A stretch of 64,000 bases of DNA, from assembly GCF_044324875.1 (NCBI RefSeq), contig NZ_CP172185.1. The stretch is one strand, 5' to 3'. The notes under the pieces were generated by a model. That model had not been told where the DNA came from. It saw only the letters and a program-made list of their open reading frames with translations, and did not search any database. A program made the translations under genes and the position numbers. This stretch comes from Escherichia coli. Lineage in GTDB: Bacteria > Pseudomonadota > Gammaproteobacteria > Enterobacterales > Enterobacteriaceae. Every line of letters begins with the position of its first letter. The stretch's first letter is position 1. Below, in pieces: positions 16,858 to 33,725 of this stretch.

Positions 16858-20239
<3,382 letters not shown>

Positions 20240-25358: not shown

Positions 25359-26015
25359 GAGAATGTTCCTCCGGATGTTGTTAAACCAGCCGGTGTGGTC
25401 ATGAAAACAACGCACCACCTTCACCGGCATAACAACCGGGGAGAAACGTAAAAAATAATCGGGAATGTGACCGCCAGGAGATAAACGGGGAGGTTACGGT
25501 GGCTGAGCCGTACCGGTATGCCGGGTGGTTGTTACGAAACGATGCTTCCGCACGCGTGCGCGATAAAGAAGGGATGATTTTCGTGAGGAAGAGGGGAAAA
25601 CTGGCGTTCTGATAATTGCAGAGTTATTTACGGGGCGGTTACGATGGGGCAGACCGTGTCCGGTGGGCAGGCGACAGGTATCACCGATGGGATAAGACTG
25701 TCTGATTGGTATTATAAATATATAAGAGAGATCAAACACATGAGATCAAATACATGAGTTCATATATGTGAAATAAACACGGTGAGTGTGATCAGTGGGC
25801 ATGATGAGAACGCTGCAAAATGGCATCTGAATCGATCGCAGTTTGGCATTCGAATCGATCATGATTTGGCATCCATCTCCGATCACAGTTTGGCATCACA
25901 ATCGATCACGATTTGGCATGCTTCCGATCATTGATTGGCATCCTGCCAGTCACTCCGGGAATTAACTCTTTTCACCACAGTCTCCATTGCCGTGTTTAAA
26001 CCAGTGGAGACGTCA

Positions 26016-27581
26016 ATGTCCAGAAAGAGAAAATCCAGGAGCACTATGGAAACCTGTTTTAAGATCCTTCAGCTCAAGTTCGACAAGAAGCTGACTAACC
26101 GTTGTATCGGACTGACGTTACACATCAGCGCCTCAACCGTTTTTGAGGTTCTTGCCCGCTTCAAAGCCTCTTCTCTGTCATGGCCATTACCTGCTGATAT
26201 ATCCCATGACACGCTGGAGAAACTCATTTTTCCGCCCAAAGACACCTTTGCATCAGAGCTTGTAATGCCTGACATGTTGTACTTCGATACGGAAATGAGA
26301 AAACCAGGTGTGACGCGGCAACTGTTGTGGATGGAATACAAGGCACAGGCGGGTAACAAAGCGATGGGATACTCGCACTTCTGCCGTTGCTACCGGGAGT
26401 GGAAAAAAACGCGACGTCTCTCCATGCGCCAGGAGCATCGTGCCGGCGAAAAGCTTTTTATCGACTTCTGTGGTCCTACGGTTCCTGTTATTAATCCGGA
26501 CACCGGTGAGATACGCCGCGTGGCAATCTTCGTGGCCGTAATGGGGGCGTCCAACTATACCTACGTTGAAGCGTGCGAAGGTCAGGACATGATGTCATGG
26601 TTAAATGCCCACAGCCGTTGCCTGACCTTCCTGGGCGGCGTACCGAAGCTGCTCATCCCCGATAACCTCAGAAGCGCAGTGAAAAAGGCCGATCGATATG
26701 AGCCTGTCATCAACGACAGTTATCAGGCACTGGCTGAGCACTATGGCACGGTTATCATCCCGGCCCGACCACGCAAACCTAAAGATAAACCAAAAGCAGA
26801 AAACGGCGTCCTCATCGTTGAACGATGGCTTCTTGCCCGCATCCGTAATGAAACCTTCCACACGCTCAGGGCGCTGAATGCGCGCCTTAGGGAGTTACTG
26901 ACAGACATGAATAACCGGCCAATGAAGGGGTACGGCAATCAAACCCGTGCAGAACGCTTCCGCATACTGGATGCGCCAGCACTCTCTCCGCTGCCTCTGG
27001 CACCTTATGAATACACGGAATACAAAGCTGTGAAGGTTGGCCCTGACTACCACGTTGAATATGCCCGTCACTGGTACTCCGTTCCACACGAACTGGTCGG
27101 TCAGCGTCTGTCACTGAAGGCGGGGCAGTCGGTGGTACAGCTCTGGCACAAGGGGCAGTGTGTGGCGCAACATCCGCGCAGCACACATGAATATAAACAC
27201 ACAACCAATCCGCTTCACATGCCAGAGCGCCACCGGCAGCACGGGACATGGACACCGGAACGCCTGATCGAGCAGGGAAAACGTACGGGCCCGTCCACAG
27301 GCCGGGTGGTTGAATCCATGCTGAAGGCAAAACCCCATCCGGAACTGGCTTATCGTGCAGTTCTGGGGCTGCTGGCACTTCAGAAAAAATACGGCCCGGA
27401 ACGGCTGGAAAAGGCCTGTTACGTTGCCCTGCACTATAACGCCCCTGACAGACGCTTTATCGACAATCTGCTGCGTCACCATCGGGAGAACCTGGAGCTT
27501 CCATTATCCCGCCAGGGCGAACAACATCCGGCATATGCTTCAGAGCATGAAAACCTGCGTGGTCCGGGCTACTACCACTGA
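26016..27581 (+). CDS. IS21-family transposase IstA
   Basis: HTH N-terminus plus DDE domain; start placed at MSRKRKSRS. Confidence 0.85.
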   Translation: MSRKRKSRSTMETCFKILQLKFDKKLTNRCIGLTLHISASTVFEVLARFKASSLSWPLPADISHDTLEKLIFPPKDTFASELVMPDMLYFDTEMRKPGVTRQLLWMEYKAQAGNKAMGYSHFCRCYREWKKTRRLSMRQEHRAGEKLFIDFCGPTVPVINPDTGEIRRVAIFVAVMGASNYTYVEACEGQDMMSWLNAHSRCLTFLGGVPKLLIPDNLRSAVKKADRYEPVINDSYQALAEHYGTVIIPARPRKPKDKPKAENGVLIVERWLLARIRNETFHTLRALNARLRELLTDMNNRPMKGYGNQTRAERFRILDAPALSPLPLAPYEYTEYKAVKVGPDYHVEYARHWYSVPHELVGQRLSLKAGQSVVQLWHKGQCVAQHPRSTHEYKHTTNPLHMPERHRQHGTWTPERLIEQGKRTGPSTGRVVESMLKAKPHPELAYRAVLGLLALQKKYGPERLEKACYVALHYNAPDRRFIDNLLRHHRENLELPLSRQGEQHPAYASEHENLRGPGYYH

Positions 27582-27597
27582 CAGAAGGAACAACAGT

Positions 27598-28353
27598 ATG
27601 AGTGATAACCTGTTAAACAAACTGACCCAACTGAAACTCCCGGCGATGGCCGGGAGCCTGATACGGCAGCGGGAAACGCCTCAGACCTACGACGAACTGT
27701 CGTTCGAGGAAAGGCTGACGCTGCTGGTTGATGACGAGCTTCTGAGCAGGGAAAACAGCCGTGTGGCACGGTTGAGAAAAAATGCCGGCCTGAAATACCA
27801 GGCAACACCGGAAGGGCTGCGCTATCCGGCCTCAAGAGGTCTGCGGGCTGAACAGATGAGAGAACTGCTGAACGGCCACTACATAACCCACAGGAAAAAC
27901 CTGCTGATAACCGGTCCGACAGGATGTGGCAAGAGCTGGATAGCCAATGCGCTGGGCGAACAGGCATGTCGACAGAAACACAGCGTCCGGTACTGTAGAA
28001 CCGGGCGATTACTGGAACAACTGGCTCAGGGACGTGTTGATGGCAGCTGGCTGAAATATCTGAAACAGTTGCAAAAAATACAGGTTCTAATCCTGGACGA
28101 TCTGGGGCTGGAACAGTTAAGTAACGCCCAGTGTAATGACCTTCTGGAGCTCATAGAGGATCGTTACGGACAAAGCAGCACGATAGTGGTAAGCCAGTTC
28201 CCGGTAGATAAATGGCATGGTCTGATGGAGAACCCAACAACAGCAGATGCCATCCTGGACAGACTGGTACATAACTCACACCGAGTGGTCCTTCAGGGAG
28301 AGTCACTGAGGAAAAATCCCCCGGTAGTGGAAAGCAGCGAAAAAACGCGTTAA
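27598..28353 (+). CDS. IS21-family ATP-binding helper IstB
   Basis: Walker A GPTGCGKS, Walker B ILDDLG. Confidence 0.85.
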   Translation: MSDNLLNKLTQLKLPAMAGSLIRQRETPQTYDELSFEERLTLLVDDELLSRENSRVARLRKNAGLKYQATPEGLRYPASRGLRAEQMRELLNGHYITHRKNLLITGPTGCGKSWIANALGEQACRQKHSVRYCRTGRLLEQLAQGRVDGSWLKYLKQLQKIQVLILDDLGLEQLSNAQCNDLLELIEDRYGQSSTIVVSQFPVDKWHGLMENPTTADAILDRLVHNSHRVVLQGESLRKNPPVVESSEKTR

Positions 28354-29324
28354 AAAGCGGTAGAAAAAGTTAAGTTCCCGGTTGATCGAATGGATGCGAA
28401 TCGCTGATCGGACTTCGATGCCAATCCGTGATCGAATAGAGCGGAATACGCAAACGCAGTAGCAACAGACTGCGCTATCCCTGATAGCTGGCGTATAACC
28501 CGCGTATATAAAACGTATCTGCAATGTACGTGAACAGAGTGCATTAAGCATCCGTCTGAGCGGTAAACATATCCGACCTGGTGAGTGACAGTCTGAGAGA
28601 CCGGTTAAGTGGTGGCTCGGGAGTAATGAGTTTGGGGTGGGTACCAGAATGCCAGTCTGGCGGTATGCTGACAGTATCACGTTAATTGCAGCATAAAGTG
28701 ATGAGAGGCTAATGGAAGTTAAAACCAAAGCAGTTCCGTCGTTGTTCATCCCGGGAGACGCTGGAAAAAGTGATTTCCCACACGCGTTATAAACTTACCT
28801 CTGCGGAACTGGAAGCCTTCAACTCTGTGGTTGATCACTGGCTGGCAGAACTGACAATGAACAAGCTTTACGATCGTGTTCCCGCTTCAGTCTGGAAATA
28901 TGTCATCTGAGCGTTCGGTAATCACAACTGCATCGCGCCAGGTGTTATCCGCTTTGTGATTCTTATTGGCTCTTCTCAGGTTATTAAAAGCTGAATATGT
29001 TCCTGTTGTCGGGAACCAGGATAATACCGGGAACGTTAAGCGGTATAGCGACAACAAAGAATTCGAAATCAAAAGGGAATGGTGCCGGAGGCGTGGGCGG
29101 TAATGGGCTGATTTTCAGGTATTACCGGCTTACAGCGTGTGGTTGATATTGAGGGGCTGTGAGTTTCACGTATTTGTCAGAAACCCAGACGAGTTTTCCT
29201 GTATGGGACGAAATAAGGCAGCGGCAATACATGGAAAAATTTAATATGGTATGAAGGAGAACCTGTCGGTTACGCTTAATATAACCGGTACACTGTCAGC
29301 TCAGGGGATACATGAACCGTTATC

Positions 29325-29525
29325 TCACCAGCTACACAGTATATACACACTGACGCTGACAGTAGTCAGCAGGACCACAATAATCAGTGCCAGCAGTATG
29401 GTAACGATACGGTCTGTATTCCGGTAATAGCCGAAGGGGTCGACAGAACCACAATACGGGCAACACACAGTATTATGAGTAATCGCGTTTCCACAGTCCC
29501 AGCACTTCTTTTTGCGTATCACCAT
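29325..29525 (-). CDS. small zinc-ribbon membrane protein
   Basis: 66 aa; CWDCG...CCPYCG followed by a C-terminal TM helix; strong RBS GAGGAGGGAG. Confidence 0.6.
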   Translation of the reverse strand: MVIRKKKCWDCGNAITHNTVCCPYCGSVDPFGYYRNTDRIVTILLALIIVVLLTTVSVSVYILCSW

Positions 29526-29730
29526 AACTCCCTCCTCACAGCCTTACCCGTAACCGGTTTTTTTACATTAAAAAAACAACGCTGAAAATTCAACCGTCAG
29601 TCCGGAGACGACCGTTCGGGTTATCTCAGAGTGCCTGAGATATTGCCTGGTTGGAGATCACTTCAGGGACTCTGCGCATTTTTTACGGCGTGGTTAATCC
29701 GTATGAACGAAACCATACGGAGATTTAACC

Positions 29731-30300
29731 ATGACCTACAAATACAACCCCTTCTGGCAGCAACGTATTCGTGAGACGGTGCGGCACGCACTGGATGTTC
29801 ATCCCCGTCTGACGGCATTGCGGGTTGATCTGCGTCTCCCGGATGTACCGGCAGCAACGGACGCGGCTGTGATATCCCGCTTCATCAATGCCCTGAAAGC
29901 CCGAATCGACGCTTACCAGAAACGTAAGCATCGGGAAGGTAAACGCGTGCATTCCTCGACCCTGCATTACGCCTGGGCCCGGGAGTTCGGGGAGCTTAAA
30001 GGCAAAAAACACTATCACCTGCTGCTGCTGGTCAACCGGGATACCTGGTGTCGTGCCGGCGATTACCGCGCTCCGGGGTCACTGGCCGGAATGATTAAAC
30101 AGGCGTGGTGCAGTGCCCTGGGAGTGGATGTCGGGTGCCATGCCACGCTGGTGCATTTTCCGGCCTGGCCGGCGGTGTGGCTGGAACGCGATGATGACAC
30201 TGGCTTTCAGCAGGTGCTGGAACGTGCTGGCTATCTGGCGAAGGAGCATACCAAAGCTCGCGGCACCGGTGAGCGCAACTTTGGCTGCAGTCGTGGCTGA
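29731..30300 (+). CDS. hypothetical island protein (possibly YagK/YfjJ-like)
   Basis: 189 aa, ATG with GGAG RBS; family assignment is a weak recollection. Confidence 0.5.
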   Translation: MTYKYNPFWQQRIRETVRHALDVHPRLTALRVDLRLPDVPAATDAAVISRFINALKARIDAYQKRKHREGKRVHSSTLHYAWAREFGELKGKKHYHLLLLVNRDTWCRAGDYRAPGSLAGMIKQAWCSALGVDVGCHATLVHFPAWPAVWLERDDDTGFQQVLERAGYLAKEHTKARGTGERNFGCSRG

Positions 30301-30460: not shown

Positions 30461-30850
30461 ATGACGATGTACGCAAAATCCTTTCTCGCACTTGATGGCA
30501 ACGGGCGTCTGACTGGTGCCCGTACCGCACAGACTGCACCTTACGATCGCTACACTTGCCACCTTTGCGGCAGTGCACTCAGATACCACCCGCAATACGA
30601 CACTGAACGTCCCTGGTTTGAACACACTGACGACGGGCTGACTAAGCACGGTCATGAGTGCCCTTATGTCAGACCGGAACGCAGGGAGGTACGCTTGATT
30701 AAGCGTCTGCAGCAATTCGTACCGGATGCCTTACCCGTGGTGCGTAAAGCCAGCTGGCACTGCAGACAATGTCACCACGATTATTATGGGGAGCGGTACT
30801 GCACTCACTGCCATACAGGGCACTTCAGTGAGGAGGGAGTGGCTGAATGA
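30461..30850 (+). CDS. Cys/His-rich putative zinc-binding protein, paralog 1
   Basis: 129 aa; CHLCG...WFEH...HECPY...WHCRQCHHDYYGERYCTHCHTG; GAGG RBS. Confidence 0.65.
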   Translation: MTMYAKSFLALDGNGRLTGARTAQTAPYDRYTCHLCGSALRYHPQYDTERPWFEHTDDGLTKHGHECPYVRPERREVRLIKRLQQFVPDALPVVRKASWHCRQCHHDYYGERYCTHCHTGHFSEEGVAE

Positions 30851-31272
30851 ACGGTATAAAAACGGGGCTGGGGATCACGCCGGGTGAACACATTATCAGT
30901 GCGGCCTCAGCCCTTAGCAGAAATATCAGGCATTGTTTCTGCCTTTCCTGTCGTGGTCGGTTGATTTTGCAGACAGATGCTCAGGGGGCGTGGTTTGAGC
31001 ACGATTTACATGCCCTGAGCGCGCAACAGAAGGCGGCCTGCGTGGTGCTGAATCCGGAAAAGTCCCACCCTTACATTGAGGATATGGCGATGTTTCTATC
31101 GCCATTACCGGTCGTGCTGGAGTGGCATTGTGTGATGTGCGGGCAGCATTTTCCCGGGAAAAAGTTCTGCGAAGCCTGTGGCACGGGGATCTATTCCAGA
31201 GCAACATGTACGAAGTCTGTTTACAGCTACCAGCCAGACTTGTTTCAGGACTGCGGAGGTGCGAGTACTTAA
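30847..31272 (+). CDS. Cys/His-rich putative zinc-binding protein, paralog 2 (translationally coupled)
   Basis: 141 aa; CFCLSCRG...WFEH...WHCVMCGQHFPGKKFCEACGTG; ATGA overlap with the preceding stop; GGAGGGAG RBS. Confidence 0.65.
   Translation: MNGIKTGLGITPGEHIISAASALSRNIRHCFCLSCRGRLILQTDAQGAWFEHDLHALSAQQKAACVVLNPEKSHPYIEDMAMFLSPLPVVLEWHCVMCGQHFPGKKFCEACGTGIYSRATCTKSVYSYQPDLFQDCGGAST

Positions 31273-33725
<2,453 letters not shown>

Follow-up and report, generated by a model that had tools for sequence, protein, structure and literature searches.

Proteins of the Hha/YmoA family, of about 70 residues, are described as small four-helix bundles (PMC6491433). They have no DNA binding of their own and dock on the N-terminal dimerisation domain of H-NS or StpA (PMC6936261). 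Hha contacts the N-terminal domain of H-NS at its first two helices, presents a positively charged surface, and enhances both DNA bridging and the silencing of foreign genes (PMC6936261). Two paralogues, hha2 and hha3, were named by Prieto et al. 2016 in EAEC 042 and are enriched in EAEC, STEC, and ST131 isolates (PMC4864382). They are reported to act with hha in modulating one of the ag43 copies, and deletion of hha3 affected the ag43 copy EC042_2242 (PMC4864382).

In the current study, we analyzed a stretch of 64,000 nt of an Escherichia coli contig (NZ_CP172185.1; hereafter, the window), in which a first-pass annotation had pointed to a possible frameshifted small gene downstream of an IS21-family element. 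We propose that this locus is very probably an inactivated or severely truncated island-borne paralogue of the hha2/hha3 type, as found in EAEC 042. The gene belongs to the known H-NS co-regulators of the Hha/YmoA family, hha2/hha3 type, and the remnant itself is already known and annotated in RefSeq. What the result settles is the nature of one small interrupted ORF, in all likelihood a disabled H-NS co-regulator of this type on an ag43 island, and its wider import is small.

Reading frames and the 14-nt deletion

The features of the locus are given below in window coordinates; L numbers designate the loci compared with the window.

25814 to 28452, plus strand: IS21-family (ISSso4-like) element with istA and istB, 2,639 bp, with TG...CA ends, delimited by BLAST of empty-site loci
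28703 to 28708, plus strand: Shine-Dalgarno-like GAGAGG, read from the sequence, ending 3 nt 5' of the ancestral ATG
28712 to 28730, plus strand: ancestral ATG and first six codons (MEVKTK) plus one base, in the original frame, with the same bases at the start of the intact CDSs of L003 and EAEC 042
28712 to 28792, plus strand: out-of-frame ORF of 26 codons made by the deletion, translated as MEVKTK, then AVPSLFIPGDAGKSDFPHAL, then a stop
28730 to 28731, plus strand: deletion junction, where DNA alignments show that AGGACTGGCTGTAT (L003) or AAGACTGGCTGTAT (042) is missing
28731 to 28910, plus strand: rest of the Hha coding sequence (QFRRCSS...WKYVI and TGA), +1 relative to the ATG, with the whole Pfam HHA domain inside
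28761 to 28910, plus strand: 49-aa PGAP CDS from CTG 28761 (WP_052318419.1), to which the CDS 6202-6351 of L001 maps, with an alternative start at GTG 28770
28839 to 28841, plus strand: TGG (Trp) codon, where 15 of 15 aligned homologues have Arg (DH-R-LAELT; equivalent of Hha R50)

The ATG at 28712, with its GAGAGG ribosome-binding site, opens the frame MEVKTKAVPSLFIPGDAGKSDFPHAL, which stops after 26 codons at TAA 28790-28792, all as described in the first-pass annotation; a Pfam search with the 26-aa peptide gave 0 matches. The same annotation had the +1 frame continue for 46 codons to 28910. These codons (VISHTRYKL...WKYVI, listed as an ORF at 28770-28910 from GTG) are indeed present inside the +1 frame, but the frame is open for 65 codons rather than 46, running from 28713 to the TGA at 28908-28910, directly after a TAA at 28710-28712 that overlaps the ATG. 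It begins WKLKPKQFRRCSSRETLEKVISHTRYKL and reads in full, by translation, WKLKPKQFRRCSSRETLEKVISHTRYKLTSAELEAFNSVVDHWLAELTMNKLYDRVPASVWKYVI. The 65 codons matched PF05321 (HHA) over positions 3-57 of the 57-position profile, at E=2.2e-25 and 89.1 bits, the curated Pfam cut-off for HHA being 25 bits; this match is far above chance and places the +1 frame of the window within the family. Between the TAA at 28710 and the GTG at 28770, the Hha frame holds no ATG, GTG, or TTG, the sole other candidate start being CTG 28761. In 28300-29800, no Rfam family was matched at E<=1, and no promoter or terminator was found in a consensus scan of 28300-29300.

Uninterrupted 70-aa homologues with the same ATG and ribosome-binding site were found, which bears out the earlier suggestion of a disrupted, frameshifted small gene. 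Intact alleles are present in L003 (NZ_CP124337, WP_000453334.1; protein MEVKTKEDWLYQFRRCSSRETLEKVISHTRYKLTPAELETFNSAVDHRLAELTMNKLYDRVPASVWKYVI) and in EAEC 042 (L007 48505-48717, WP_000453331.1), and GAGAGG also precedes the annotated start of these intact alleles. Based on its position near ag43, at a distance of a few genes, we take the EAEC 042 gene (EC042_RS24130) to be, probably, the one encoding Hha2 (EC042_4516). The intact allele also matched the PDB structures of Hha, YmoA, and Cnu, and homologues of 67-70 aa are frequent in E. coli, Salmonella, Klebsiella, Citrobacter, and Yersinia.

In DNA alignments with the intact alleles, the window lacks 14 nt at 28730|28731, after codon 6. The lesion is thus located in codon 7 and not near the stop at 28790, where the first-pass annotation had implied a join of the two frames. 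The missing nucleotides encode E7-D8-W9-L10-Y11, the equivalents of Hha T9-M13, which are helix-1 residues conserved in Hha. Residues 5-69 of the intact protein align without gaps to Hha 7-71 (E=1.7e-22), and EDWLY corresponds to TDYLM of Hha and to QEWLY of the Salmonella homologues; on these grounds we consider the intact allele as the ancestral state and the deletion as derived. A recurrent slipped-strand deletion was also considered, but no direct repeat flanking the deletion is visible in the sequence.

The deletion removes the start of helix 1 and moves the remaining ORF into the +1 frame. Ribosomes initiating at the native ribosome-binding site and ATG would then yield a meaningless peptide of 26 residues, and any product in the Hha frame would comprise 46-49 residues, with helix 1 and the beginning of helix 2 missing. 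We infer that such a product is most likely non-functional, because helix 1 and part of helix 2 would be lost and an otherwise invariant Arg is replaced by Trp. This substitution was confirmed in both protein and DNA alignments, in which the window alone has Trp after DH. Among the core residues (RRC, DHRLAELTMNKLYD), the RRC motif is also present in the window. There is no complete ORF of ~67-72 aa in which the entire domain, with its helix 1, follows a start codon, and because the deletion separates the ATG from the HHA domain, the locus is a remnant and not an intact family member. The changes on the window branch comprise three non-synonymous ones (P-to-S, A-to-V, and R-to-W) versus about two synonymous ones, numbers that are tiny but would fit relaxed constraint.

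Annotation in RefSeq and island context

Hundreds of finished E. coli genomes share a 441-nt stretch with the window at 100% identity, and RefSeq labels it there as "Hha/YmoA family nucleoid-associated regulatory protein". The 49-aa CDS with the CTG start is called on identical or near-identical DNA in L001, L006, L009, and L011, whereas in L002 and L008 PGAP annotates an hha pseudogene "missing N-terminus", which begins exactly at the deletion junction. The same lesion is therefore annotated inconsistently, either as a 49-aa CDS from CTG or as a pseudogene.

The locus shows the hallmarks of the hha2/hha3 island paralogues, as it lies on an ag43-carrying, IS-flanked island, has the expected neighbors, and is closely similar to the gene of EAEC 042. 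The gene order of the island is shared with both 042 loci and with L001, i.e., Ag43, a GTPase, a YfjI-like gene, a hypothetical gene, an HTH regulator, hha, and further genes downstream. Those downstream of hha are a small zinc-ribbon ORF on the minus strand, an inovirus-Gp2/YfjJ-family gene, and two zinc-ribbon genes. At the expected position of Ag43 in the window, the ORF at 16858-19041 on the minus strand encodes only 727 aa versus the 3,120-nt agn43 CDSs of L001 and EAEC 042, and may be a truncated or disrupted copy of a putative Ag43. The small zinc-ribbon ORF (29325-29525, minus strand; 66 aa) combines a CxxC...CxxC zinc ribbon with a hydrophobic tail and has the hha remnant on one side and the inovirus-Gp2/YfjJ-family gene (29731-30300) on the other; its RefSeq equivalent in L001 is a hypothetical protein (WP_001297900.1).

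The ISSso4-like element, which is complete and named after the RefSeq annotation of its matches, is inserted in the intergenic region that separates the hha remnant from the AlpA-like HTH gene, at 259 bp on the 5' side of the ATG at 28712, and could affect the transcription of the remnant. It is flanked by a 5-bp target duplication, AACGC, at 25809-25813 and 28453-28457. The exact insertion junction was detected in 0 of 5,426 complete E. coli genomes. The two zinc-ribbon genes (30461-31272) are closely followed by a second IS21-family element (31378-33179, minus strand), whose istB (31378-32160) and istA (32157-33179) match genes that are annotated as IS100/IS100kyp in L001.

Distribution of intact and deleted alleles

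The gene was found in about 2,571 of the 5,426 complete E. coli genomes, at 3,846 places, many genomes having two to five copies. Among the 5,426 genomes, about 1,740 carry the deleted junction and 693 the intact one. The predominance of the deleted junction among complete E. coli genomes counts against a simple pseudogene, as does the finding that, in nearly all sampled deleted alleles, the PF05321-containing frame after the deletion is still open for 60 codons. On the other hand, the locus bears the marks of a pseudogene, with an intact orthologue that has the same start, a defined lesion, the R-to-W substitution, and independent decay within the family. This decay includes an A5-to-A4 frameshift in L004, a change of ATG to ATA with several indels in L010, and the replaced 5' end of the 58-aa second copy in EAEC 042, all independent lesions. 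Neither a pattern spanning the deleted and intact junctions nor a 29-nt core invariant in all fetched alleles had a match in the GTDB species-representative contigs.

At least two classes of deleted alleles exist. The window type retains the TAA before the ATG, whereas in the second class this TAA is replaced by CGA, and the Hha frame extends upstream to a TTG, so that PGAP annotates a 74-aa "hha" (MQHKVTRDEWKLKPEQFRRC...). The class, to whose junction about 720 E. coli records are >=95% identical, may represent a rescue of the reading frame after the deletion. An example is the following.

L005 1527 to 1751 (NZ_CP124367), window equivalent 28686 to 28910: 74-aa class, with an N-terminus derived from the former 5' UTR

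The comparison of the window (28731-28910) with L002, L005, L006, L008, and L011 gave pairwise dN/dS values of 0.04-0.19 among deleted alleles, with dS up to 0.31-0.35 and dN of 0.015, and the haplotypes that carry the deletion have diverged from each other on either side of it. Such a pattern is not what neutral decay after an old deletion would leave. However, the deleted alleles are mosaic; that of L011, for example, has an L002-like 5' end and a 042-like 3' end. Recombination with intact island copies may lie behind the low dN/dS, and could yield it because the alleles are mosaic and many genomes carry several copies. The mosaic structure is also the reason why we did not adopt dN/dS as evidence of function.

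The intact junction is present in only about 693 of the roughly 2,570 gene-positive complete genomes. Where hha2/hha3 serves as a virulence marker (PMC4864382) and its presence is scored by PCR or BLASTN, the count may include many alleles that are unable to make the 70-aa protein.

Alternative explanations

Instead of a remnant, the locus could encode a working mini-Hha of 46-49 residues, translated from CTG 28761 or GTG 28770 and perhaps translationally coupled to the overlapping 26-codon ORF. Such a protein would keep helices 3-4, with which Cnu/Hha-family proteins are described to bind H-NS, and might itself be an H-NS ligand or a competitor; for Cnu, helices 3 and 4 are reported to take part in the binding face (PMC6491433). 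PGAP annotates exactly this 49-aa CDS on identical DNA, and the frequency of the deleted junction, the open frame across diverged deleted alleles, and their dN/dS values all point in this direction. Besides, a GGGAGA is present upstream of the GTG, and the copy at the hha3 position of EAEC 042 is likewise altered N-terminally (58 aa), the deletion of hha3 having affected ag43 EC042_2242. We nevertheless regard this explanation as unlikely. CTG is rare as a start codon, and the GGGAGA is poorly spaced for either start, with 3 nt to the CTG and 12 nt to the GTG. An AlphaFold model of the Hha frame of the window, of low confidence (pLDDT 62) and used for approximate helix positions only, has helices at residues 14-24, 30-55, and 58-61, and both alternative starts, L17 (CTG) and V20 (GTG), fall inside the helix at 14-24, so that initiation there would be within helix 2, with the loss of helix 1 and part of helix 2. 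In addition, the window carries Trp at the otherwise invariant Arg, the same lesion is annotated as a pseudogene in other genomes, some deleted alleles have decayed further (L010), and the dN/dS argument is unsafe for mosaic alleles.

A broader version, for which we see little probability, is that the deleted alleles are a maintained class making shortened or remodeled Hha-like proteins, of 46-49 aa or, via the upstream TTG, of 74 aa. If this were true, such proteins could modulate or antagonise H-NS/Hha complexes in a way unlike Hha2, and the low dN/dS of the deleted alleles would reflect real selection and not recombination.

It is highly improbable that an early +1 slip, e.g., of tRNA-Lys on the A4 run of GTT-AAA-A (28721-28724), restores a near-full-length Hha-like protein (MEVK-PKQFRRC...). 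The A4 run precedes the HHA domain, and a slip at this point would enter the Hha frame; the ATG, the ribosome-binding site, and GTTAAAACC are also conserved in most deleted alleles. However, four A's are too short for efficient slippage, as known from prfB-type and A-run frameshifting. The locus lacks a prfB-like stop/Shine-Dalgarno context, has no Rfam match in the scanned region, offers neither a stop nor a rare codon behind the AAA at which ribosomes would stall, and has no internal Shine-Dalgarno sequence at a stimulatory distance. The homologues with a continuous frame differ by 14 extra nucleotides and not by a conserved shift site, the ATG has been lost in L010, and the product would still be without the EDWLY of helix 1.

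Finally, an assembly or sequencing error in a gene that is really intact, for which nothing specific speaks beyond short indels being a common type of error, is rejected as next to impossible, since the same 14-nt gap is found in about 1,740 finished genomes and the identical 441-nt stretch in hundreds of independently finished ones, and a gap of 14 nt without a homopolymer is atypical of such errors.

Comparison with known Hha proteins

Considering these alternatives, we retain the reading of the locus as an inactivated or severely truncated hha2/hha3-type paralogue, for which Hha2 of EAEC 042 is the closest reference. Both genes have the same ATG and ribosome-binding site, align at the nucleotide level over their full length except for the 14-nt gap, and contain the Pfam HHA domain. 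They also share their neighbors, i.e., ag43, the GTPase, the AlpA-like HTH regulator, the inovirus-Gp2 (YfjJ-like) gene, and the zinc-ribbon genes. In contrast to Hha2, the window gene is without 14 nt after codon 6 and therefore frameshifted, carries R48W and three other substitutions, and has an IS21-family element 259 bp upstream.

A second point of comparison is the copy at the hha3 position of EAEC 042.

L012 18133 to 18309 (NC_017626.1 5138133 to 5138309), minus strand: hha3-position copy, 58 aa (EC042_RS25585 / WP_001344112.1)

From its expected position, we assume that EC042_RS25585 is probably the published hha3 (EC042_4796). Its product has an unrelated N-terminus (VAARNTSGDAGKVNSH...) and is without the RRC motif and the region that aligns with helix 1 of Hha; the published hha3 phenotype may thus come from a truncated protein, judging by its predicted sequence. 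Like the window gene, this copy is island-borne, has Ag43-family and inovirus-Gp2-family neighbors, and is non-canonical in its N-terminal part. However, its 5' part has been replaced by unrelated sequence and its A-run is A4, whereas the window shows a clean deletion of 14 nt.

Core Hha, YmoA, and Cnu/YdgT (PDB 1JW2/2MW2, 4ICG, 2K5S, and 2JQT) belong to the same family as the window gene, and the window frame retains both LAELTMNKLYD, from the core, and the Asp that corresponds to D48 of Hha. While core hha is a conserved chromosomal gene encoding 72 aa, the window copy is a horizontally acquired island paralogue, about 52% identical to Hha and disrupted.
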